UHGV virus genome: UHGV-1528002
Length of the DNA: 36,070 nucleotides
Strand: one strand, 5' to 3'
DNA from: a virus
A program made the translations under genes and the position numbers. A model generated the notes under the pieces. That model saw only the letters and a program-made list of their open reading frames with translations. It was not told the origin of the DNA and searched no databases. Below, piece after piece: positions 3,870 to 34,734 of the stretch; the stretch's first letter is position 1; each line of letters opens with the position of its first letter.

Positions 3870-4687
3870 ACGTACATATCCTGTTTACGTGCCCAGTCAG
3901 GGCGTTTAATAATTTCCACTCCGCCCCATTCATCGTTGATGCGGCATTCGTGATAGGTATTCAGATCCCGGCGGAACAGAGCGTGCCCGGCATCGACATC
4001 TGGCGCATCCAGCTCGAACACGCGTACCGGATACCGACCACAATCAATGCTTTCGCTCACGGCAAGAAAGAAAAAACCATGCGGCTGACCAGTAACCCTC
4101 ATTGCGCCTTCGCGGTACATTGCGTCCTGCACGTGGTAGCGGAATTCCTCGATGTGGCGTGCAAAACGGTCCATATCTGCAACCTTTTTCACGTCGACGA
4201 TCACGTTGTGCTCGTTCAGCCATTTGTCTGGACGAATTCGGCACAACTCACCCGTCTCTTCATCGTTCCAGTACATTGATGCTTCGCAGTAACCAGGTGC
4301 TTCCAACATCCAGCGTGCCGCCGGATGAGCCATTGCGCTATCACGCATCAGCTCCAGTTTTCGCCACTGCTCGACATCAAGTACCGTAATACCCATATCC
4401 GCCACATCACGAAGAAATGCTTCTTCGTCAGCTTTACCTTGTTTTGTCCGACGATCGAATTTCGGTGAAACGATGAAGCGTTTGTCGAATTCTCCAGGTT
4501 CCAGAAGCAGGCAGTGCAATGCGGTTCCCATATCCAGTGCAGACTTTTTCTCTTCGTCTTCTGGTGCTGCCTGAACCCATTTAAGAAGCGCCGGATTCTT
4601 GGCAACCATGTCCAGTTGCGACTTACTCACGCCGTCACCTGCGTGGTAGTCTTCGTTGCTGATGTCGAAATAAATTCCCGGTTTCAT
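3866..4687 (-). CDS. Recombination exonuclease, PD-(D/E)XK family (RecE C-terminal-like)
   Basis: N-terminus MKPGIYFDISNEDYHAGDGVSKSQLD typical of the RecE-C-terminal-like nuclease fold; paired with the annealase gene as a RecET/Red-like module. Confidence 0.7.
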   Translation of the reverse strand: MKPGIYFDISNEDYHAGDGVSKSQLDMVAKNPALLKWVQAAPEDEEKKSALDMGTALHCLLLEPGEFDKRFIVSPKFDRRTKQGKADEEAFLRDVADMGITVLDVEQWRKLELMRDSAMAHPAARWMLEAPGYCEASMYWNDEETGELCRIRPDKWLNEHNVIVDVKKVADMDRFARHIEEFRYHVQDAMYREGAMRVTGQPHGFFFLAVSESIDCGRYPVRVFELDAPDVDAGHALFRRDLNTYHECRINDEWGGVEIIKRPDWARKQDMYV

Positions 4688-4984
4688 GCCGCGTCCCTCT
4701 GCCCATCAAGCTGATCCGCCAGATCCCAGCGCGCTATAATTGCCATTGCCTCGCGCCGGTAGGCATCCATCAGTTCTTCGAACTCAGGGCTGTCTTTAGC
4801 AGCCTCCAGCACTTCCTGACGAACGCCTTTGCCTGTTACAACGTCGAAAGTTGAGGACAGTTGATGAAGTCGGATGCTCTCAATCAGTTCAACTTGTCGG
4901 TCATATAGCTGTTCTGACAGGCGGTAGTCCTTGTCGAATGCCAGCATGATTTTTTGAAGATTTTTCTGCTGATTAACGTTCATT
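4684..4984 (-). CDS. Hypothetical protein, first gene of the leftward early operon
   Basis: ATG at 4984 preceded by GGGAGG RBS; ATGA overlap with the exonuclease gene. Confidence 0.5.
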
Positions 4985-5291: not shown

Positions 5292-5876
5292 TTATTGTTT
5301 GTTTTTTTCGTTCTGGTTGATGACAAATTCAATGTAACTTTCGATCTTTGCTTTCTCGGTTTCGGGTAACAATGCGTAGCGCGAGCGGTCATAGTTGATG
5401 GTCGCAGGGTCGTGCGGGTGAATCAGTAATTCATAGCCGTGACGCCCGAATGCGGATGCAACATTCTCCAGGGTGGAAATGGAAACGCTGACCTCATTGT
5501 TTAACAGGCGGCTGATTGTCACCTGGGCGACGCCGGATGCGCGGTGAAGTTTTCCCTGAGTTGAAAGGTCGCGGCTTTCGCTCATCCAGCGTTCCAGGTT
5601 GTGAGCCGCCAGCTGACCAATGTCGCTTGGGCCGACAGGCTGAAAACCTTCCTGAGAAAGCGAGCGATCGATATCAAGCCAGTTACGTGGTTTATTGGCG
5701 GCAGCTTCAATTTTTCGCGCAACCTGGTCGCCGATAACCTTCTTGCCAAGAGCCCAGCGGTTTACCAGATTTGCCTGAGTTCCAAGTTTTTCTGCCATCC
5801 GCGTCTGAACACCATTGAATTCACGGTCGATCAAGTCGTTGAGATTTTGCCTGCGGACGTCCTGGATACTTTTCAT
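5292..5876 (-). CDS. Immunity repressor, tandem helix-turn-helix type, no recognisable autocleavage domain
   Basis: Two HTH-like segments (TRMAEKLGTQANLVNRWALGKK and HRASGVAQVTISRLLNNEVSVSISTLENVASAF); divergent from a Cro-like gene and flanked by palindromic operators; no Ala-Gly/Ser-Lys peptidase motif seen. Confidence 0.7.
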   Translation of the reverse strand: MKSIQDVRRQNLNDLIDREFNGVQTRMAEKLGTQANLVNRWALGKKVIGDQVARKIEAAANKPRNWLDIDRSLSQEGFQPVGPSDIGQLAAHNLERWMSESRDLSTQGKLHRASGVAQVTISRLLNNEVSVSISTLENVASAFGRHGYELLIHPHDPATINYDRSRYALLPETEKAKIESYIEFVINQNEKNKQ

Positions 5877-6627: not shown

Positions 6628-7443
6628 ATGAGCAGACATGCAACAGATTGGGCCTGGGAGACAGATCCAGGTAGCTCATCATTAAAGCTCATACTGCTCT
6701 CGATGGCTGACAGAGCCGATGAATATAACCTCTGCTACCCCAGCATAGAACGCCTCGTTAAAGACACTTGCCTGAATAAAAAAACCGTGCAGGCCGGGCT
6801 TATATCGCTCATGAAAATGGGGCTTATTTCAGATACCGGAGAGAGAAAGGGAGCGACAAAAAGAGTGCGGGTTTTCTCTCTTAATATAACCAAAAACGGG
6901 AACATTAAAGGCAACCGGGAAGGGGGTAATGAACCCGAAAACGGTAATTTTACCGAAAACGGGAATATACCCAAAAACGGGATGTTGAATGATCCCAAAA
7001 ACGGGATGTTGAATGATCCCAAAAACGGGATCCAGAACCAGTCATATAACCAGTCATTTAACCAAGAGAGGGAGAGCAGGACAAAAAACGGGGATTCTGT
7101 GTCTCATGACCCCGGCGCAAACAACGCCGTGATGAATAACTTTGTTCCTCCTGGTGGGCCAGGGCAATTAGGCAAATTTGTCATGCATGAACAATGGCAA
7201 CCATCAGATGACTTTCTTCGGAAAAGCTCATTGCAGGGGATCTACCTGGACAGTCTGCCAACGGCACAGGAACTTGCAGAGTTCAGAATTTACTGGATGG
7301 CTGAGGGTAAGGCATACCATCAGGCACAGTGGGAGCAGAAGCTGGCAAGGAGGCTGCAGATTAGCAGACAGAAGCAATCAACATTACCTGATAACAACGT
7401 TCCGCACTGGAACAGCCCTGAAGCATGGGAGGATTTCTTGTGA
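6628..7443 (+). CDS. Replication initiator (lambda O-like role) with N-terminal winged-helix domain and an iteron-encoding linker
   Basis: N-terminal HTH-like region (LKLILLSMADRADEYNLCYPSIERLVKDTCLNKKTVQAGLISL); repetitive Asn/Gly linker encoded by iterons; immediately upstream of a lambda P-like gene. Confidence 0.7.
   Translation: MSRHATDWAWETDPGSSSLKLILLSMADRADEYNLCYPSIERLVKDTCLNKKTVQAGLISLMKMGLISDTGERKGATKRVRVFSLNITKNGNIKGNREGGNEPENGNFTENGNIPKNGMLNDPKNGMLNDPKNGIQNQSYNQSFNQERESRTKNGDSVSHDPGANNAVMNNFVPPGGPGQLGKFVMHEQWQPSDDFLRKSSLQGIYLDSLPTAQELAEFRIYWMAEGKAYHQAQWEQKLARRLQISRQKQSTLPDNNVPHWNSPEAWEDFL
6889..7030 (+). repeat. Iteron array (candidate replication origin) inside the initiator gene
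   Basis: At least 6 direct repeats of (A/C)CC(A/G)AAAACGG(G/T)A at 6889, 6934, 6952, 6969, 6994, 7018; the last three are exactly 24 bp apart. Confidence 0.65.
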
Positions 7444-12181: not shown

Positions 12182-12778
12182 ATGATGCCTGCTGAACCTA
12201 AAACCTATAAACGCAAATCAACGCAATTTAAGCCACTAACAGCAATGCAGGAGGCTTATTGCCAGTCATACATCAAAACGCCTGAAAACCAGACTCAGGC
12301 AGCGATTAACGCAGGATTCTCCCCAAATACAGCGGCAGTTAAAGCCAGTGTCATGATGCGCGATGAACGCATTCAAAAACGGATTGCCGAGTTGATGGAG
12401 GAGCGCAACAAACGAATGCGCGTCAGTGCTGATTACGTTCTCATGCGCCTGGTGGAGATCGACCAGATGGACGTGATCGACATCCTCAACGACGATGGGA
12501 GCCTTAAACCAATCCGTGAGTGGCCGAAAATCTGGCGCACTACGCTTAGTGGCTTTGATCTGTCATCGACCATCATGAACATGAACGAGGATTCGATAGA
12601 GACAATCCTCAAAAAAATTAAATGGCCTGACAAGGTGAAGAACCTTGAGCTGATTGGTAAGCATGTTGATGTCAACGCGTTCAAAGAACGTCTGGATGTT
12701 AATGTGAATGTGACAATTGCTGATCGCATAGCAGCAGCCAGGAAGCGACTCAAAGAACGTCAGGATGGTAATCAGTGA
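12182..12778 (+). CDS. Terminase small subunit
   Basis: ATG 12182 behind AAGGTGG RBS (the track's longer ORF spans the terminator); AYCQSYIKTPENQTQAAINAGFSPNTAAVKAS matches the small-terminase pattern; overlaps the large subunit gene. Confidence 0.75.
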   Translation: MMPAEPKTYKRKSTQFKPLTAMQEAYCQSYIKTPENQTQAAINAGFSPNTAAVKASVMMRDERIQKRIAELMEERNKRMRVSADYVLMRLVEIDQMDVIDILNDDGSLKPIREWPKIWRTTLSGFDLSSTIMNMNEDSIETILKKIKWPDKVKNLELIGKHVDVNAFKERLDVNVNVTIADRIAAARKRLKERQDGNQ

Positions 12779-14250
12779 CAGATACAGCGTTATCTCCTGA
12801 AGAGCAGTTGATCGAGGATATTGCAGGGTTCACTCACGATCCGCTTGGTTATGCCCTCTATGCGTTCCCGTGGGGGGAAGAGGGGACTGAACTGGCACAT
12901 GCCACCGGTCCACGTCAGTGGCAGGCCGATGCGTTCCGAGAGATACGTGATCACCTGCAGAATCCAGAGACGCGCTATCAGCCGCTTATGCTGGCACGCG
13001 CTTCTGGTCACGGTATTGGTAAATCCGCATTCATCTCAATGCTGATCAACTGGGGCATGTCCACTTGCGAGGATTGTAAGGTCGTGGTGACCGCCAACAC
13101 CGACAACCAGCTACGAACGAAGACTTGGCCGGAAATTATCAAGTGGTCGAACCTTGCTATCACGAAAGACTGGTTTACCTGTACCGCTACCGCGATGTAC
13201 AGCAATGATCCTGGGCACGACAAGCGGTGGCGAGCTGACGCAATCCCCTGGTCTGAGCACAACACTGAGGCATTCGCCGGACTACACAACGAGCGCAAAC
13301 GCATCATCGTGGTATTCGATGAAGCGTCGAACATTGCGGATCTGGTGTGGGAAGTTGCCGAGGGTGCGCTAACGGACGAAGACACTGAGATTATCTGGGT
13401 GGCGTTCGGAAACCCGACGCGTAATACCGGACGTTTCCGCGAATGTTTCCGCAAATATAAACACCGCTGGAAAACTGCGCAGATTGACAGCCGGACGGTG
13501 GAAGGCACTAACAAACAGCAGTTGCAGAAATGGGTTGATGACTACGGGGAAGACAGCGACTTCGTTAAAATCCGTGTGCGCGGCATATTCCCGGATGCAT
13601 CTGAATTGCAGTTTATCCCTACCGGACTTACTGACGAGGCAATGAAACGGGTGGTCACCGCTGCGCAGGTTGCACATGCTCCGGTGATAATCGGCGTTGA
13701 CCCGGCATACTCAGGCGTTGATGATGCGGTGATATACCTGCGGCAGGGGCTGCACAGTAAGGTGCTGTGGACCGGCAACAAGACCACTGACGATCTGATT
13801 ATGGCAAAGCGTATCGCTGACTTTGAAGACCAGTATCAGGCTGACGCGGTGTTCATCGACTTCGGTTACGGAACTGGTCTGAAGTCAATCGGTGACGGCT
13901 GGGGTCGTACATGGCAACTTGTTCCGTTCGGTGGCGCGTCTACTGACCCGCAGATGCTCAATAAGCGCGGGGAGATGTTCAACTCATGCAAGACGTGGCT
14001 GAGGCTGGGCGGCATGCTTGATGACCAGGAAACAGCGGACGACCTGTCGGCGGCAGAGTACAAAGTTCGAGTGGACGGTAAAATCGTTATCGAACCGAAG
14101 GAAGATATCAAGGAGCGGCTTGGGCGTTCTCCTGGTAAAGGCGATGCGCTACTGCTGACGTTTGCGTTCCCTGTGTCGAAGCGTCTGCGAATTCCCGGGC
14201 AGCAGAACCAGCAAGGCAAGGCCATCACAGATTACGATCCATATGCTTAA
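12775..14250 (+). CDS. Terminase large subunit
   Basis: 491 aa; ATPase region (ARASGHGIGKS, VVFDEASN) and C-terminal nuclease region; position next to the small subunit. Confidence 0.85.
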   Translation: MTDTALSPEEQLIEDIAGFTHDPLGYALYAFPWGEEGTELAHATGPRQWQADAFREIRDHLQNPETRYQPLMLARASGHGIGKSAFISMLINWGMSTCEDCKVVVTANTDNQLRTKTWPEIIKWSNLAITKDWFTCTATAMYSNDPGHDKRWRADAIPWSEHNTEAFAGLHNERKRIIVVFDEASNIADLVWEVAEGALTDEDTEIIWVAFGNPTRNTGRFRECFRKYKHRWKTAQIDSRTVEGTNKQQLQKWVDDYGEDSDFVKIRVRGIFPDASELQFIPTGLTDEAMKRVVTAAQVAHAPVIIGVDPAYSGVDDAVIYLRQGLHSKVLWTGNKTTDDLIMAKRIADFEDQYQADAVFIDFGYGTGLKSIGDGWGRTWQLVPFGGASTDPQMLNKRGEMFNSCKTWLRLGGMLDDQETADDLSAAEYKVRVDGKIVIEPKEDIKERLGRSPGKGDALLLTFAFPVSKRLRIPGQQNQQGKAITDYDPYA

Positions 14251-14300
14251 TCCGCTGGTGGGGATAATGTCGTTGATATCCTCTGATGAGGATAAAACAA

Positions 14301-14323
14301 AGCCAGCTCATCGGCTGGCTGTT
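14301..14323. terminator. Bidirectional terminator-like hairpin between convergent genes
   Basis: AGCCAGC-tcatcg-GCTGGCT; T-rich tract on the minus strand (TTTGTTTTAT) and GTTTG on the plus strand. Confidence 0.5.
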
Positions 14324-14336
14324 TGTGACATGTCAC
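14324..14336. repeat. Palindrome TGTGACATGTCAC, copy 2
   Basis: Identical 13-mer; shares the extended flank ...GTCACG-GTGTTA with copy 1. Confidence 0.7.
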
Positions 14337-14340
14337 GGTG

Positions 14341-14760
14341 TTACTTAATGGCATTAAATCCAGCGTTGATGGCTTCCGCAATATTGATGGCACTTGTTTT
14401 ATCGAAGTGCCCATTCTGAATAAGCGCCGCATGCAGGCATTGTAACTTCATGTTGTATAAGTGTTCGCTCATGTAATCATGATCACTTTTTGCTTTAGCG
14501 TAAACAGCGCGAGAAATATCAAACATATCGCCTTTTTCCATTTCAGAACGTTGTGCTGTTATCCAGTCATGGAACGTAACGCTAGTACCATGGTCTTCGC
14601 TAAGAGTTAACCCGGCCAGTCCCTCACTCTGAATTACTTCGTAATGCATTTCATTACCAGCAAAAACGCCATAAAAAACGCAGTCTTCAGCCTGAACGAT
14701 ACGAGAATATTTTAATGGCCATTCATTTAGATACTTAGCCAACATATCAATTGTCTTCAT
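14341..14760 (-). CDS. Hypothetical protein (inverted moron between terminase and portal)
   Basis: 139-aa ORF opposite to the flanking late genes; AAGGTGAG RBS directly after a terminator hairpin. Confidence 0.5.
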   Translation of the reverse strand: MKTIDMLAKYLNEWPLKYSRIVQAEDCVFYGVFAGNEMHYEVIQSEGLAGLTLSEDHGTSVTFHDWITAQRSEMEKGDMFDISRAVYAKAKSDHDYMSEHLYNMKLQCLHAALIQNGHFDKTSAINIAEAINAGFNAIK

Positions 14761-14770
14761 AATCTCACCT

Positions 14771-14797
14771 TAAAAAAATGCCCGGACGAACCGGGCG
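14771..14797 (-). terminator. Rho-independent terminator between the tRNA and the moron gene
   Basis: Minus strand GCCCGG-ttcgt-CCGGGC followed by TTTTTTT. Confidence 0.6.
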
Positions 14798-14870
14798 AAC
14801 TGGAAGCAATGAGTTCTGCCTTCCGTGGCTGTACTGGTTTACAGCATGAAGTCATCGCAATGGCGTCCTG

Positions 14871-14916
14871 CTGTAAAAAGGGCGGTGATAGTCCTTCAAG
14901 GGAAACCATCACCGCC
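14871..14916 (-). terminator. Terminator-like long hairpin downstream of the tRNA
   Basis: Minus strand 9-bp stem GGCGGTGAT...ATCACCGCC with 18-nt loop followed by CTTTTT. Confidence 0.4.
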
Positions 14917-14959
14917 AAGCACCTGGAACTTCTGGCATCACGGTCCTTAGGCGTGATTC

Positions 14960-15036
14960 TGGCGTGGCATGCAGGATTCGAACCTGCGACCAACCGCTTA
15001 GAAGGCGGTTGCTCTGTCCAACTGAGCTAATGCCAC
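14960..15036 (-). tRNA. tRNA-Arg, anticodon UCU, CCA encoded
   Basis: Minus strand folds as a cloverleaf: acceptor GTGGCAT/ATGCCAC, D-stem GCTC/GAGC, anticodon stem ACCGC/GCGGT with loop CTTCTAA, T-arm GCAGG-TTCGAATC-CTGC, discriminator G plus CCA. Confidence 0.85.
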
Positions 15037-15358
15037 AACGCTGAGAGCACTTAGCCTGTTAAGGCGCCACACTTTGTCGCGGCTCCATAAATGCTCTCAT
15101 CGTTGTACCCTCGTCTCTTCCGAGGCGTCACACCGAATCGCCGGGATGGTGAATCCCCGTGCGCGGAATAAAACCGCTCGACTTGCACATTCCGGCTACC
15201 TGGTTCGTTTGCCCGAGCAAGGGAGGGTGCCCCTTAAACGTATCCAGACCGCTATCGGCGCATGTGCCATACGCCGTACTGCTCAAAATAAAAGCTCACT
15301 CCACCTGTTCAATTTAACGACAAGCCAGTCATGTTAGTAACCGGAATGAACTCTTTGG

Positions 15359-15373
15359 TTACCTCAAAGGTAA
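15359..15373. promoter_or_regulatory. Operator palindrome TTACCTCAAAGGTAA
   Basis: Exact consensus copy in the 427-bp non-coding region between the tRNA and the gp6.7-like gene; minus-strand flank AATTAT-TACCT as at PL. Confidence 0.45.
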
Positions 15374-15463
15374 TAATTCGCGCATTAAATGTCAACTGCC
15401 TACGATAAATAAATCATATGTGGTTAAATTGGTAATAATTTAATTGCGTACGGAGTCATTGAT

Positions 15464-15670
15464 ATGTGCATGGGTAGCTCACCATCAGTGCCTGCAACAC
15501 CAGAAGTTCAGGCAGCACCACAGGAGCAGGATGCCGCCGTTGTTGATGCCCGCGACGAAGAAACTCGTCGCCGTCGCGCTGCTGCTGGTCGTAGTTCTAC
15601 GCTGCTTACCGGTTCTCAGGGCGACACATCAACCGCTAAGACCAGCGGTAAAACGCTGCTTGGTCAGTAA
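15464..15670 (+). CDS. Small virion protein resembling T7 gp6.7
   Basis: 68 aa starting MC, Ser/Thr/Ala-rich with basic C-terminus; sits directly upstream of the portal gene as in T7. Confidence 0.5.
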   Translation: MCMGSSPSVPATPEVQAAPQEQDAAVVDARDEETRRRRAAAGRSSTLLTGSQGDTSTAKTSGKTLLGQ

Positions 15671-15684
15671 CCGGAGTCATTGAA

Positions 15685-17364
15685 ATGGCGGAAACAACTA
15701 AAGAGCGATTGAACAAACAGTTCGCACAACTTGAAAGCGAGCGTCAGTCGTTCGAGCCGCACTGGCGCGAGTTGAGTGATTACATCAACCCACGTGGTTC
15801 CCGCTTTCTGACTTCTGAGGTCAACCGTAACGATCGACGCAATACACGCATTATTGATTCGACCGGGACTATGGCGGCGCGCACTCTCGCCAGCGGCATG
15901 ATGTCAGGCATCACAAGCCCCGCGCGTCCGTGGTTTCGCCTGGCTACGCCAGATCCTGAAATGATGGATTATGGCCCTGTTAAGTTGTGGCTTGAGGCGG
16001 TGCAGAACCGCATGAACGATATGTTCAATAAGTCGAATCTCTACCAGTCTCTTCCGCAGTTATACGGAAGCCTCGGCACATACAGCACCGGTGCAATGGC
16101 GGTACTGGAGGATGACGAGGACATCATTCGCACAATGCCATTCCCGATAGGCAGTTACTACCTGGCTAACTCACCTCGTGGCAGTGTGGACACCTGTTTT
16201 CGCAAGTTCTCTATGACCGTTCGTCAGCTTGTTCAGGAGTTCGGGCTAAATAACGTCAGCGAATCCGTAAAAAGCATGTGGGAAAGCGGCACCTACGAGA
16301 AGTGGATTGAAGTGATGCATTCGGTTTACCCGAACATTGACCGCGATACATCGAAGCTGGATAGCAAGAACAAGCCATTCAAATCGGTTTATTACGAGGT
16401 TGGCGGTGATAACGACAAGTTGTTGCGTGAGTCCGGATTCGATGAGTTTCCAATTATGGCTCCGCGCTGGGAAGTTAATGGCGAAGATGTTTATGGATCA
16501 TCATGCCCGGGTATGCTGGCGCTTGGACCTGTTAAGGCATTGCAGCTTCTCCAGAAGCGCAAGTCGCAGTTGATTGATAAAGCCACCAATCCGCCGATGG
16601 TTGCTCCGACTTCCCTCAAGAATCAGCGCGCCTCCCTTCTTCCTGGCGACATCACGTATATCGATCAGATTACTGGTCAGGATGGATTCAGGCCTGCTTA
16701 TCTGGTTAACCCCAGTACAGCAGATTTGGTGGCAGACATTCAGGACACTCGTCAAATCATTAACAGCGCCTACTTTGTCGATCTGTTCATGATGTTGCAG
16801 AACATCAATACCCGCTCGATGCCTGTTGAAGCGGTGATCGAAATGAAAGAAGAAAAACTTCTGATGTTGGGGCCGGTTCTGGAGCGTCTGAACGACGAAT
16901 GTCTTAATCCTCTCATTGACCGCGCTTTCTCGATGATGGTGCGTAAAAACATGCTGCCGCCACCGCCTGACGCGATGGAAGGCATGCCCCTGAAGGTCGA
17001 ATACATTTCCGTCATGGCTCAGGCGCAGAAGTCTATCGGCCTGTCCAGTCTGGCGTCCACGGTTAACTTCATTGGTCAACTTGCGCAAGCGAAACCAGAA
17101 GCTCTCGACAAACTCAACGTTGATCAGGCGATCGATGCATTCGCTGATATGTCCGGAGTGTCTCCAACCGTCATTGTTCCGCAGGAACAGGTTGAGCAGG
17201 CTCGCCAGCAACGGGCACAGCAGCAACAGCAGCAACAAATGATGGCGATGGGGATGGCGGCGGCACAGGGTGTCAAGACGCTAAGTGAAGCTAAAACTTC
17301 GGATCCGAGTGTGTTGTCAGCTATGGCGAATGCAGTTAGTGGTCAGGGTGGGCAATCACAATGA
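15685..17364 (+). CDS. Portal (head-to-tail connector) protein, T7 gp8-like
   Basis: 559 aa; Gln-rich C-terminus QQRAQQQQQQQMMAMGMAAAQG parallels the T7 gp8 C-terminus; followed by scaffold and capsid genes. Confidence 0.8.
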   Translation: MAETTKERLNKQFAQLESERQSFEPHWRELSDYINPRGSRFLTSEVNRNDRRNTRIIDSTGTMAARTLASGMMSGITSPARPWFRLATPDPEMMDYGPVKLWLEAVQNRMNDMFNKSNLYQSLPQLYGSLGTYSTGAMAVLEDDEDIIRTMPFPIGSYYLANSPRGSVDTCFRKFSMTVRQLVQEFGLNNVSESVKSMWESGTYEKWIEVMHSVYPNIDRDTSKLDSKNKPFKSVYYEVGGDNDKLLRESGFDEFPIMAPRWEVNGEDVYGSSCPGMLALGPVKALQLLQKRKSQLIDKATNPPMVAPTSLKNQRASLLPGDITYIDQITGQDGFRPAYLVNPSTADLVADIQDTRQIINSAYFVDLFMMLQNINTRSMPVEAVIEMKEEKLLMLGPVLERLNDECLNPLIDRAFSMMVRKNMLPPPPDAMEGMPLKVEYISVMAQAQKSIGLSSLASTVNFIGQLAQAKPEALDKLNVDQAIDAFADMSGVSPTVIVPQEQVEQARQQRAQQQQQQQMMAMGMAAAQGVKTLSEAKTSDPSVLSAMANAVSGQGGQSQ

Positions 17365-32141: not shown

Positions 32142-32774
32142 TTAATGCAGTTTATCTTTGCTTATAACCAGTAGTCTGTGGGTATGCACATCTTTATCAC
32201 TGCCCCAACAGAAATCAGCCCACTGGCTATAGAAATCATCCCATGATGTCATGAAGCTAAGAGGTCTATCTTCTTCAGAGCCATCTGAAACGTATACATT
32301 ATATCCCGGGGTGTTTATAGCCCAAGAAATCATTCTTTCCCAGAATCTTCTCCCATCGATTGTTTGTTGCTCATCAGATACAACGATCGCATATTGCTCT
32401 AGGAAGAACTGAAAAAAAATCTGAGGCAAACCATGAACAGCACGGTCATGAATAACATTAGGCGTACGCCATACCATGATCTGCGTACATGTTCTTTTGG
32501 CTTCGACGATATCTTCCCGAAAGATTAACTTAACCGCATACACCGTTTCTGGAGTATCGCTGGTAGTAATCATTCTGTAATGATCGCCATTACAAGATTT
32601 TACAAGGCGATAACCATAAGGTGTTGTGAATCCCGGAAGAACGAAATCAACCACACCTTTCGCTAAGTAGCTTTCGGTGTGACTAGTGTTCTTCTCAGAC
32701 ATGTTCAGTTTTCTATCGAAATCTGCTTCTGGGATAATGTATGGCATCGCTTTTCTTGTTGTATTTGTTCTCAT
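32142..32774 (-). CDS. Hypothetical protein (210 aa) under an operator-controlled promoter
   Basis: Strong GGGAGGA RBS; AT-rich; no recognised domain; promoter with overlapping operator immediately upstream. Confidence 0.6.
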   Translation of the reverse strand: MRTNTTRKAMPYIIPEADFDRKLNMSEKNTSHTESYLAKGVVDFVLPGFTTPYGYRLVKSCNGDHYRMITTSDTPETVYAVKLIFREDIVEAKRTCTQIMVWRTPNVIHDRAVHGLPQIFFQFFLEQYAIVVSDEQQTIDGRRFWERMISWAINTPGYNVYVSDGSEEDRPLSFMTSWDDFYSQWADFCWGSDKDVHTHRLLVISKDKLH

Positions 32775-32919: not shown

Positions 32920-33606
32920 TCAGAAGAACCCTGCCTTGTCGTTGATGTACTCCGCGTGGGTCTGGATATCACGCAGGCATTTACTCACACCGACGATGTA
33001 GCAGAACATGGTGGTCAGTTCCGCCGCCGCGCCCGATACGTCATGCCCGTCTTCCTGTAACTGGTTCAGCAAATTCATCAGCAGTGAGTTCTCCGTCAGG
33101 CCGAGAACACCAGACGGCGAATGAATCAGGCTGCGGTAGCCGGGCTTCAGCGGGGCACTGTAGGTTTTGTTCTCTATCTTCATCGCCTGCATCACTGCTG
33201 ATGCTGTGGCGTTTGCAACCTGGTCGGCAACCATCTTTATGCGTTCTTCCTGCGGGAGCGAGTTTTTAATGTAACTTCCGGTGCGGCGGATCTGAGGAAG
33301 AACCTCACCTGTAACCCATTTACGAAAGCGGTAGGGGATAGTGCCTGGTGTCACCGCATCGCGGCAGCGGAGGATCAGTGTGTAGAGGCCTGACTCGCTG
33401 ATAATATTGGTTTCGCCTTGACGACCTAAGTTAAATTTAGCCCTTTCATCATCATCAAGAGATTTGATTGACATGGTGGGGTTTGTCAGTTGAAGAGCTT
33501 TAATAACGTCTTTGGCAACAAACCAAGGATTTCCATCAATAACAATGGCTCGAATGGTTGCTTCTGATTCAAAATGAAAAACAGATGGGGTTACGTTAGC
33601 AGTCAT
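32920..33606 (-). CDS. Antirepressor, BRO-N domain with KilAC-like C-terminal domain
   Basis: N-terminal FHFESEATIRAIVIDGNPWFVAKDVIKALQL...IISESGLYTLILRC is the BRO-N pattern; ATG 33606 behind AAGGTGA RBS; C-terminal 75 aa are paralogous to the small gene at 34757-35014. Confidence 0.8.
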   Translation of the reverse strand: MTANVTPSVFHFESEATIRAIVIDGNPWFVAKDVIKALQLTNPTMSIKSLDDDERAKFNLGRQGETNIISESGLYTLILRCRDAVTPGTIPYRFRKWVTGEVLPQIRRTGSYIKNSLPQEERIKMVADQVANATASAVMQAMKIENKTYSAPLKPGYRSLIHSPSGVLGLTENSLLMNLLNQLQEDGHDVSGAAAELTTMFCYIVGVSKCLRDIQTHAEYINDKAGFF

Positions 33607-33762
33607 GGCAATCACCTTTTAGTATGGTTAATCACCACCTGAGGTGCAAATCTCGTTGGTGGTGAGACGTACAGGGTTTGCACTACCGGCTAAAAGGACC
33701 CGGCGCACCTTTCGGTGCCCCTGCACGTCCCACCATAATTCTGGCATGACTGTGCTATACGC

Positions 33763-33784
33763 ATAAAAAAACCACGTCTGGCGT
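33763..33784 (-). terminator. Terminator-like hairpin inside the antirepressor 5' leader
   Basis: Minus strand CCACG-ccaga-CGTGG followed by TTTTTTT, about 160 nt upstream of the antirepressor start. Confidence 0.45.
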
Positions 33785-33877
33785 GGTATGCGCCTTTTAG
33801 TAATCCGGGGTGCAAATCCCGGCACTGGATTTTGCCAGTGCTCAATTACTATGGCACAAGAGGAGTGCGATGTAAAT

Positions 33878-34005: not shown

Positions 34006-34734
34006 ATGGAAGTTTTCTGGATAGTTGTTGGTGTGGTTGCGGTGATTATTTACGTTATCAACCAGAACAAGACTAAGATCTCTGATCGTACGGTCGTTAA
34101 TCATAACAAAACGATAAAGACCGAAGATGGGGAGATAACGATTAATCGTACACAGGTGATAGAACACACCTCTACTCAGTTTCAAAAAACTGGAGGTAAT
34201 GCGCCTAATATTTCCGCACCTCCTGCTTATGATAGTGCGGTAATCCAGACATATTATAAACAGCAGGAGTTAGCAAAAGAGAGGCAACTGATTCAGCCAA
34301 AGCCGTTTACAGCTGAGCTTCCACCTGGAGTGTCAACGCGTCCGGCATATCATGGAAGATTCCCTGGTGATGACATATCGTCTCAGTCATCTAAAAAAGC
34401 ACCTCAGGCAGTATCAGAGCCAGCAAGAATACCTTCTGTATCGCCGCCAAAAGAAGAATCAGCTAACAGAGTTTCAAGTGGTAGCAAGCAGTGCTTGCGA
34501 TGCAGAATAAACCTTCCATATGAAAAATTCAGGAAATCGTCAAAAAATCCAGATGGATTGACTAAGTGGTGTGCAAGGTGTCTCGATGGCCCAAAGAATA
34601 CACGCCATATGAAGTGGTGCCCAATTTGTAATGTCCGCAGAAAACGAACCAGCTTTTACCCTAATAATCAAAATGCGGACGGCTTAATGGCATGGTGCAA
34701 AACGTGCTGGGATGAGCACAAAGCGAAACGATAG
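34006..34734 (+). CDS. Membrane-anchored protein with tandem C-terminal zinc ribbons
   Basis: N-terminal TM helix (VFWIVVGVVAVIIYVI), low-complexity linker, two repeats of CxxC...NPDGL..WCxxC; GAGGAAAA RBS. Confidence 0.55.
   Translation: MEVFWIVVGVVAVIIYVINQNKTKISDRTVVNHNKTIKTEDGEITINRTQVIEHTSTQFQKTGGNAPNISAPPAYDSAVIQTYYKQQELAKERQLIQPKPFTAELPPGVSTRPAYHGRFPGDDISSQSSKKAPQAVSEPARIPSVSPPKEESANRVSSGSKQCLRCRINLPYEKFRKSSKNPDGLTKWCARCLDGPKNTRHMKWCPICNVRRKRTSFYPNNQNADGLMAWCKTCWDEHKAKR

Follow-up and report, generated by a model that had tools for sequence, protein, structure and literature searches.

The GOLLD and ROOL RNAs of phages and prophages are large and intricately folded, are of unknown function, and often adjoin tRNA genes. 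Phage HK022 carries two copies of put (putL and putR), an RNA of ~70 nucleotides (nt) with two stem-loops that acts via the zinc-binding domain of the β′ subunit of RNA polymerase. Put requires no phage protein to suppress either intrinsic or Rho-dependent terminators, nor need it stay tethered through the transcript; ten put sequences have been aligned (PMC9378689). A class of lambdoid phages that lacks the N protein was reported in 2025, with its mechanism of antitermination unknown (PMC12315714). We have studied a minus-strand cassette in the virus genome UHGV-1528002 (36,070 nt; the whole of this stretch of DNA is termed the window), in which a tRNA-Arg(UCU) gene, two terminators and an open reading frame (ORF) of 139 amino acids (aa) lie between the genes for the large terminase subunit (terL) and the portal protein. 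A previous sequence-only reading of this region made no mention of a structured RNA upstream of the tRNA. We find that positions 15282-15037 of the minus strand are a structured RNA supported by covariation. The tRNA is already annotated in public records; what stands out is this unrecognized leader RNA, which matches no Rfam family. We found no description of it in the literature, our coverage of which was incomplete, so that an earlier description is possible.

In the lambdoid class without N, the leader RNA sits where lambda has nutL and HK022 has putL; it is present in Shiga toxin (Stx) phages and phage-plasmids too. Like putL and putR, it is a nascent phage RNA just behind an early repressor-controlled promoter in phages lacking N. 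It differs from put in having a core of 150–180 nt plus a further helical domain (P6), a pseudoknot and one copy per phage, and in occurring also in mid-operon in P1. Homology to HK022 put was considered and rejected, as there is no sequence or model match and the architecture is different. The comparison with lambda N/nut and the boxA of rrn operons is similar. The RNA occupies the nutL position in lambdoid phages, its P5 hairpin with a GAAGAG loop superficially resembles boxB, and a perfect boxA is found in a few variants (e.g., locus L089). However, its conserved part greatly exceeds a nut site in size. Identification as a lambda-type nut site was rejected, with boxA (GCUCUUUA) in 2 of 140 variants and no N gene in the carriers. 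GOLLD and ROOL, most reports of which concern other groups of bacteria, do not have the leader position of the present RNA; the Rfam search gave no match to either, and we claim no homology with them.

The Leader RNA Is a Structured RNA of the Minus Strand

The noncoding DNA at 15037-15460 is 98%–100% identical among the Uetakeviruses of Escherichia coli, above the flanking coding DNA. Searching the window with a covariance model (R1) gave a single copy of the RNA core, at 15282-15106 on the minus strand (148.6 bits, E = 1.6e-45), and no second copy that could be an analog of putR was found in the window with the filters off. Rfam 15 applied to the window at the gathering threshold returned only the tRNA, C4 and isrK, with nothing for 15037-15290 even at E ≤ 5. 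The predicted fold of the whole 531-nt leader has z = −5.0.

Within the core, P4 forms a loop-to-3′ pseudoknot (CACC/GGUG), and P5 is the hairpin CCUCG-GAAGAGA-CGAGG. A set of invariant motifs (UAUGGCACAUG, AGCGGUC, the 19-nt motif GGUAGCCGGAAUGUGCAAG, UCACCA...GGCG...GGUGUGAC and GGAAGAG) is interspersed with helices that change in a compensatory manner. We scored five helices, i.e., P1, the base of P2, P4, P5, and the pseudoknot that joins the P4 loop to the 3′ strand. In a MAFFT alignment of 23 sequences these were 93.1% paired, compared with 24%–52% when the partners were slid, and compensatory changes were present in 11 of the 26 pairs. For 67 distinct sequences aligned with R1, 93.2% of the pair cells were paired (22%–52% with slid partners) and 13 of 26 pairs exhibited compensatory changes. 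These occupied 156 cells, compared with 48 in shuffles, and none of 500 shuffles reached 156. The R1 alignment, being fitted to the model, is tilted in its favor, but the independent MAFFT alignment agrees. The pseudoknot itself covaries, CACC/GGUG being replaced by AACC/GGUU.

The stem of the P6 domain was scored by duplex folding, since ungapped scoring misses bulged variants. The duplex has ΔG ≤ −12 kcal/mol in 88 of 96 distinct homologs, in many compensatory versions, and is always followed by UGG. The variable P6 insert of loci L009, L013, L104 and L077 contains hairpins resembling a tRNA T-arm (GGUUCGAUUCC / GGUUCAAUUCC), at ~+120 to +230 from the 18-mer used for the scan below; ARAGORN calls no tRNA there.

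The RNA is on the minus strand. This is fixed by near-invariant U⋅G and G⋅U pairs (U⋅G in 65 of 67 sequences at one position), which would be C⋅A on the other strand, and by the neighboring tRNAs and marker genes, all of which are co-oriented with the RNA. The same pairs bear on the possibility that the conserved element acts as DNA, be it in packaging, as a hot spot of recombination or as an array of protein-binding sites. In the window it adjoins the terminase genes, and it marks a recombination boundary for exchange of the downstream cargo gene. Yet the frequent wobble pairs are strand-specific, the helices remain paired through compensatory changes, and in lambdoid phages and P1 the element is far from the packaging genes. 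We regard a function at the level of DNA as extremely improbable.

Distribution and Genomic Contexts

The segment 15040-15277 matches phages of unlike types at 70%–82% identity, nearly always where nothing is annotated. The carriers include cdtI, mEp460, Ayreon, 2H10, 12 Stx2c-converting and three Stx2-converting phages, P7 and other P1-like phages, together with Klebsiella and Salmonella phages and the Stenotrophomonas phage BUCT708. An exact 18-mer scan of IMG/VR gave at least 120 viral contigs, with at least 104 distinct cores. Of 5426 complete E. coli genomes, 1829 (34%) contain the core, in 2457 places of which 548 are on plasmids; the feature annotated at the E. coli copies was "none" among the matches listed. 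The copy in E. coli strain 2/0 (NZ_CP023853) is 100% identical to the leader core over the 191 nt compared. The 19-mer was found in 24 species-representative genomes, and R1 confirmed 23 of these loci at ≥105 bits. Twenty-two are in Enterobacterales (Escherichia, Klebsiella, Citrobacter, Kosakonia, Phytobacter, Enterobacter, Buttiauxella, Erwinia and others) and one is on a contig of a Bacillota metagenome-assembled genome; the remaining 19-mer locus, L140 (Oscillospiraceae), gave no R1 match. The Bacillota copy (L152 1153-1312, 163 bits) lies on a contig of 1.7 kb that is probably mis-binned enterobacterial phage DNA.

In P1 the core is found between trnI and ban (L168 7019-7201; 71018-71200 of the P1 record) with a score of 137 bits, and in P7 with 135 bits. 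The P1 record contains 535 features, including a "dicF-like region," and none of them is at the position of the RNA; indeed the RNA was unannotated in all the records inspected. A few records have coding sequences (CDSs) called across the tRNA or the RNA: L002 2672-2923 (phiV10p04), L004 3093-3302 (PhiR63_1 XSB43258) and L006 2911-3072 (Tyrion gp54). These hypothetical CDSs are probably spurious, and the present finding corrects their annotation.

Three kinds of context recur. In Uetakeviruses the order is portal, a 68-aa ORF, a divergent control region, the RNA, tRNA-Arg or a tRNA-less helix, hairpin P8, terminators T1 and T2, a variable gene that we term the cargo, and the convergent terL. 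In lambdoid phages a cI-like repressor gene and its terminator are followed by a PL-type promoter, the RNA and yfdP-yfdQ-yfdR; in L037 and L117 only a few nt separate the beginning of the RNA from the predicted start of transcription. No N gene is annotated in the lambdoid carriers, and N is absent from this class of lambdoid phage (PMC12315714). In P1 and P7, tRNA-Ile(CAU) (trnI) is followed by a spacer of ~15 nt, the RNA core alone and ban. The P1/P7 tRNA-ban operon, which is under C1 control, shares with the window the RNA itself and dispersed repressor operators, and the window phage also has a C4 RNA/antirepressor region. In contrast to the window, P1 has its tRNA upstream of the RNA, lacks the P6, T1 and T2 modules, and carries downstream a gene for a DnaB-type helicase in place of swappable cargo.

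Some loci depart from these arrangements. Locus L027 has two tandem cores (3997-4158 and 4804-4963; 118 and 160 bits) ~800 nt apart, with a reverse gene of 166 aa between them. A reverse gene with a bidirectional terminator is inserted directly behind P5 in L089, L046 and L122. ST64B was examined as a carrier, in the gap between cI and the yfdP-like gene (L167 5230-6060), and rejected, as the covariance model detected no P1–P5 core. The gap still contains a P6-like stem, a GUGGUG..CACCAC helix, a T1-like hairpin with CUUUUUACAC, and a CUGUAGCCAGUGCAAGC motif. ST64B may be a divergent member of a family wider than R1 detects.

Organization of the Cassette

The window belongs to the genus Uetakevirus (the epsilon15/phiV10 group) and is the genome of a temperate podovirus. 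Its region 14200-15700 is 95% identical to that of phage HEMP4, and 92%–98% identical, over part of the length, to those of PAS61, phiV10, O157 typing phages 9 and 10, ZX5 and TL-2011b. The features of the cassette are collected in Table 1. The coordinates bear out the sequence-only reading that a minus-strand unit breaks the rightward packaging and head genes. Its description of the placement of the tRNA as unusual is not upheld, since this is the normal layout in Uetakevirus phages, and several GenBank records (e.g., that of typing phage 9) annotate the tRNA. The order terL, reverse cargo gene, tRNA-Arg, a gap of ~430 bp, the 68-aa ORF (phrog_831) and portal is shared with phiV10, typing phage 9 and PAS61, as well as with Salmonella phages of SPN1S/SPC32 type and Klebsiella ST512-KPC3phi13.3. 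The layout of terL, reverse cargo, tRNA-Arg and portal is also that of typing phage 10, TL-2011b and ZX5. The tRNA-Arg(UCU) is at a fixed distance from the leader RNA in 35 of the fetched loci. The tRNA and cargo cassette is thus ordinary equipment of epsilon15/phiV10-like phages.

Table 1. Features of the Cassette and Its Flanks in the Window
Feature	Position	Strand	Basis or remark
terL	12775-14250	+	Left flank of cassette, convergent with cargo unit
Terminator closing the unit	14301-14320	-	Terminator scan; between cargo ORF and convergent terL
Cargo ORF, 139 aa	14341-14760	-	Sequence, ORF list
Ribosome binding site (RBS) of cargo ORF, AAGGUGAG	14764-14771	-	Sequence
Intrinsic terminator T2, GCCCGGUUCGUCCGGGC + AUUUUUUU	14772-14796	-	Terminator scan
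Hairpin UUUACAGCA...UGCUGUAAA	14838-14878	-	Sequence and predicted fold of whole leader; reuses part of T1 tail
Terminator-like hairpin T1 (GGCGGUGAUGG...CUAUCACCGCC), tail CUUUUUACAG	14871-14916	-	Terminator scan
Conserved hairpin P8, AUCACG-CCUAAGGAC-CGUGAU	14937-14957	-	Motif counts over loci
tRNA-Arg(UCU), CCA encoded	14960-15036	-	ARAGORN (anticodon TCT), Rfam tRNA model
P6 domain, long stem CAACGAUGAGAGCA / UGCUCUCAGCGUUG closing variable insert	15037-15105	-	Duplex folding; ends at tRNA 5′ end
Leader core: P1 (CGGCGUAUG-GCA-CAUGCGCCG), P2, variable P3, P4, P5, invariant GGUAGCCGGAAUGUGCAAG	15106-15282	-	Covariance model R1
Operator-like palindrome TTACCTTTGAGGTAA	15359-15373	.	Overlaps candidate -10
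Candidate sigma-70 promoter: -35 TTGACA (15395-15390), 17-nt spacer, -10 TACCTT (15372-15367)	15367-15395	-	Sequence; inferred
68-aa ORF (phrog_831)	15464-15670	+	Kept among relatives; precedes portal
Portal	15685-17364	+	Right flank of cassette

The candidate promoter lies upstream of the leader RNA. Its TTGACA and the 17-nt distance to TACCTT or TACCCT are kept in Klebsiella, Tyrion and L104/L085 relatives, with divergence of the spacer sequence. The palindrome that overlaps its -10 element is one of 15 TTACC-N5-GGTAA sites in the window, where 0.6 would be expected (starting at 136, 5158, 5220, 5932, 5980, 6317, 8263, 8325, 12150, 12168, 15359, 32834, 33878, 33971 and 35091). Four of them flank a gene for a helix-turn-helix (HTH) repressor (5292-5876, minus strand), two on each side, over predicted PL- and PR-like promoters. 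The set looks like a dispersed operator network resembling the C1 operators of P1. The orthologous HTH protein of phage ZX5 acts as a repressor (PMC9782041). Since the sole candidate promoter overlaps a palindrome of the kind that brackets the repressor gene, the cassette is probably repressed in the lysogen. If promoter and operator function as suggested and the cassette is transcribed as a single unit, this would be an early repressor-controlled transcript and not a moron expressed in the lysogen; in effect, a small PL-type operon moved into the space that separates terL from portal.

Both terminator hairpins that had been noted after the tRNA were found by a terminator scan of the minus strand, which gave four sites in the region compared with 1.8 ± 1.4 in shuffles. 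The T1 hairpin proper (14916-14881) has 14 bp and a tail reported by the scan as CTTTTTACAG; the base of its stem and its U-tract are conserved, and the distal stem covaries. T2 as scanned occupies 14796-14780 (GCCCGGTTCGTCCGGGC + ATTTTTTT). A T2-type element, GCCCG..CGGGC followed by U7, also lies after the leader in Klebsiella, Enterobacter and Stenotrophomonas phage copies, and that of the Stenotrophomonas phage is nearly identical (GCCCGG..CCGGGC + U7). A stem analogous to the 14838-14878 hairpin is present in cdtI and ST64B. The closing terminator is invariant in the window, phiV10 and PAS61. Over the wider set of loci, the core is followed by P8 in 22, by the T1 tail in 22 and by a T2-type terminator in 20 of 24 distinct loci with tRNA-Arg, and in 29, 49 and 14, respectively, of 88 other loci, the T1 tail here including lambdoid leaders. 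The corresponding background is 0, 1 and 0 of 260 windows. PAS61 (L001) lacks the 33 nt just upstream of T2 (14797-14829 of the window), and so has a shorter T2 stem with a homologous cargo retained (annotated as 140 aa); this natural variant is useful for the function of T2.

An RNA with invariant junction nucleotides, covarying stems and a pseudoknot has the architecture of an aptamer, and conserved terminator hairpins lie downstream. The leader might therefore be a riboswitch-like or protein-binding sensor, a conditional attenuator that sets the frequency of termination at T1 and T2. The base and U-tract of T1 are kept even in lambdoid leaders, and the hairpin that reuses part of the T1 tail would be consistent with such switching. 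However, T1 is ~190 nt from the core with the whole tRNA between, so that aptamer and terminator do not overlap as transcriptional riboswitches need; moreover the P1-type copies lack the terminator modules, and the gene context yields no candidate ligand. We consider a sensor improbable.

The RBS of the 139-aa ORF begins right after the U-tract of T2 (...GCCCGGUUCGUCCGGGCAUUUUUUUAAGGUGAGAUUAUG), and the ORF starts 11 nt past it, confirming the abutment of RBS and T-tract described previously. In the stretch from the tRNA to the ORF, a promoter scan of the minus strand (14797-14960) gave no sigma-70-like promoter. With no promoter of its own and two terminators ahead of it, the gene needs read-through, as had been proposed. 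The term moron, by which the cassette had been classed, is not supported in its usual sense of an autonomously expressed lysogenic gene, since the gene has no promoter of its own and the sole candidate upstream overlaps the repeated palindrome. As in morons, there is a terminator behind the gene (14320-14301) and the content of the slot varies among related phages. When the window is aligned with phiV10 and PAS61, the two flanks are nearly identical, with an abrupt break between the stop codon (14341-14343) and the start codon and RBS (~14760-14771), and between phiV10 and the window the swap spans exactly start to stop codon. The morons of lambdoid and HK97-like phages are alike in being reverse accessory genes between terminators in the late operon in a hypervariable slot. 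Unlike them, the unit of exchange here is a bare ORF between a common RBS and a common terminator.

A further explanation, that of the sequence-only reading, is a simple moron comprising a tRNA and an accessory gene. The rest would be no more than promoter and spacer, with the cargo owing its expression to incidental leakage through the terminators. The tRNA, terminators and ORF are indeed as it described, and the slot is as hypervariable as moron sites are. Against this, the supposed spacer is more conserved than the flanking genes and exhibits strong covariation, the RNA recurs in unrelated phage types without tRNA or cargo, and a promoter over a repeated operator argues against autonomous expression in the lysogen. 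We judge it very improbable.

At least seven unrelated cargo families occupy the slot. The phiV10 cargo (phiV10p03) is a 123-aa PF13876 protein (N4 gp49 / Sf6 gp66; 120 bits). Assignment of the 139-aa protein to PF13876 was rejected, with no Pfam match and only 8 of 19 identities with phiV10p03 by BLASTP. Other cargos in the relatives include DUF2829 and DUF551 proteins, a 306-aa membrane or coiled-coil protein and a 146-aa Cys-rich protein; a Pfam search of five other cargo proteins gave no match. The 139-aa ORF matches phrog_4846, a PHROGs family of unknown function, and gave no match to Pfam, PADLOC, NCBIfam or Protein Data Bank (PDB) profiles. Its relatives among 5.8 billion proteins are all "hypothetical" and from Enterobacterales, and an exhaustive profile search of the family against 1.84 billion representatives gave 28 matches; a 2042-aa match (P0121) was discarded as an artifact of immunoglobulin-like repeats. 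Structure prediction, which had been suggested as a check, gave an AlphaFold2 model of low confidence (predicted local distance difference test [pLDDT] score 66, predicted template modeling [pTM] score 0.36) in which only a C-terminal helical hairpin is confident. The model had no outside fold match; Foldseek against viral structures returned its own family alone. The family is modular, with the C-terminal ~50 residues common to 123-aa proteins with a different N-domain, and versions of 201–204 aa that add a domain. Two members that we traced, one of them a 123-aa variant, are always in this slot. Hypervariable single-gene slots like this one probably hold, as a rule, genes for host interaction, defense or anti-defense, and the cargo may be of this kind.

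A Possible Role in Antitermination

We favor, tentatively and with somewhat less than even confidence, a put-like role for the leader RNA, as a cis-acting antiterminator that would let RNA polymerase pass T1 and T2. The unit would be transcribed leftward from the promoter at ~15395-15367, giving in turn an RNA of ~250 nt, the tRNA, a structured spacer with two terminators, the cargo ORF and the closing terminator. The leader RNA would act in cis on the polymerase that made it, rendering it resistant to termination, so that only transcripts from the repressor-controlled promoter would pass T1 and T2 and express the cargo. The RNA would do the same job at the start of the early-left operon carried by N-less lambdoid phages, and ahead of ban in P1 and P7. 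We are led to this because the cargo is promoterless behind two terminators, because the RNA has the nutL/putL position in phages that lack N, and because the terminator modules travel with the RNA. The intervening tRNA would be no obstacle, since put RNA works untethered (PMC9378689). A fuller proposal is that these RNAs are a new, widespread class of leader acting as protein-independent processive antiterminators, structurally unrelated to put and larger analogs of it, which tolerate an embedded tRNA; this we hold to be doubtful.

A number of observations weigh against antitermination. The promoter scan does not report 15395-15367, because the -10 sequence TACCTT is too weak. The HK022 immunity region contains no motif or R1 match to the leader RNA, which is 2.5–7 times larger than put, and R1 finds no second copy in the rightward operon of the lambdoid phages that carry the element. 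Involvement of boxA and Nus factors was suggested by three variants but is unsupported in general, as boxA is canonical in just 2 of 140. ST64B, a close relative of the N-less phage LLS, is without the core by the covariance model. In P1 and P7 the RNA is ~2.3 kb from Pban and directly behind trnI, and a scan for the P8, T1-tail and T2-type modules found them in 0 of 13 P1-type loci. In L089, L046 and L122 the bidirectional terminator comes immediately after P5, as for a stand-alone RNA. In several contexts the RNA borders directly on a tRNA or T-arm-like hairpin, which suggests that enzymes of tRNA processing release it.

Several of these points would be accommodated by the main rival to an antiterminator, a stable noncoding RNA that acts in trans. 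It would be cut out by tRNA-processing enzymes, for example by RNase P at the 5′ end of tRNA-Arg here and by processing of the trnI 3′ end in P1, or ended by terminators, and would have as its target a conserved component of the host, perhaps serving as a decoy or inhibitor during takeover or anti-defense. The cargo would then be expressed only through leaky read-through of T1 and T2. The RNA is bordered by a tRNA, at its 3′ end in Uetakeviruses and at its 5′ end in P1/P7, T-arm-like hairpins are found in the P6 insert of other variants, three loci have a strong bidirectional terminator right behind P5, and the P1 copy is in mid-operon with none of the terminator modules after it. The long invariant stretches outside the covarying helices, kept across Escherichia, Klebsiella, Enterobacter and Stenotrophomonas phages, also fit a conserved partner. 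However, the RNA is always upstream of protein genes and co-oriented with them, and in phages without N it is at the extreme 5′ end of PL transcripts. Promoterless cargos behind two terminators are left unexplained. On balance a stable trans-acting RNA seems unlikely.

If the leader RNA is an antiterminator, it would be a testable candidate for the mechanism missing from the lambdoid class without N. It would explain the expression of the early-left operon in those phages and that of promoterless cargo behind terminators, and would give synthetic biology a portable module for read-through. Should it rather be a processed RNA acting in trans, it would be a new abundant phage RNA with a host target, made at the outset of infection or induction.

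The tRNA as a Probable Decoder and as a Domain of the Leader

The cloverleaf of the tRNA was confirmed by ARAGORN and by the Rfam covariance model RF00005 (73.3 bits, E = 2e-14, gathering score 29). Comparison with argU of E. coli K-12 (NC_000913) gives 64 identities in 77 positions. Every difference in the acceptor and anticodon stems is compensatory, the T-arm and anticodon loop are the same, and A20 and G73 are retained. A20, C35 and G73 are the identity elements for arginyl-tRNA synthetase. The earlier view that this is a phage-type argU-like tRNA with a divergent acceptor stem, and not a host copy, thus holds. With compensatory stem differences, an identical T-arm and anticodon loop and an encoded CCA, it is a tRNA of phage lineage under selection, and looks functional. 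A Klebsiella relative has a tRNA of the same type, and BLAST with the locus matches many phage tRNA-Arg genes. Phage tRNA-Arg(UCU) genes such as argN and argO of Stx phages have the same anticodon. In contrast to these, the tRNA of the window is inside a structured leader between terL and portal, and not near Q or lysis genes.

The tRNA would supplement decoding of AGA (and AGG). As anticipated in the sequence-only reading, these codons are enriched 5- to 6-fold in the phage ORFs. Per 1000 codons, AGA occurs 5.4 times in 40 ORFs of the window and 1.09 times in 37 annotated genes of K-12 (Fisher p = 5e-10), and AGG 3.8 and 0.61 times, respectively (p = 2e-8). AGA clusters in a small number of early or accessory ORFs, with six in 6628-7443 and five in 34006-34734, and accounts for 10 of the 14 Arg codons of 32142-32774 (minus strand); the 139-aa gene has none. 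The ORF 32142-32774 encodes 210 aa with no Pfam match, and is the most obvious client of the phage tRNA.

The variants of the leader that lack a tRNA have a GUGGUG...CACCAC helix where the acceptor stem (GUGGCAU...AUGCCAC) would be, and P8 follows in the same way; a degenerate D-arm remains in the L085 variant. Because this helix replaces the acceptor stem, with P8 following likewise, we regard the tRNA as a domain of the leader RNA. This may explain why the tRNA has an unusual GUGG start.

Other Features of the Window

The remaining genes of the window include an integrase (193-1443), RecT, the HTH repressor, a Bro-N antirepressor, and the small and large terminase subunits and portal. The 68-aa ORF contains an arginine-rich stretch, EETRRRRAAAGR, resembling the arginine-rich motif peptides of N type; nothing ties this ORF to the leader RNA. 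The C4 antisense RNA (33655-33740, 77.8 bits) and an isrK-like Hfq-binding RNA (33765-33841, 67.4 bits) detected by the Rfam models are both on the minus strand, and adjoin the Bro-N antirepressor gene (32920-33615, also minus strand). The arrangement is that of an immI region of P1/P7 type, here in a podovirus.

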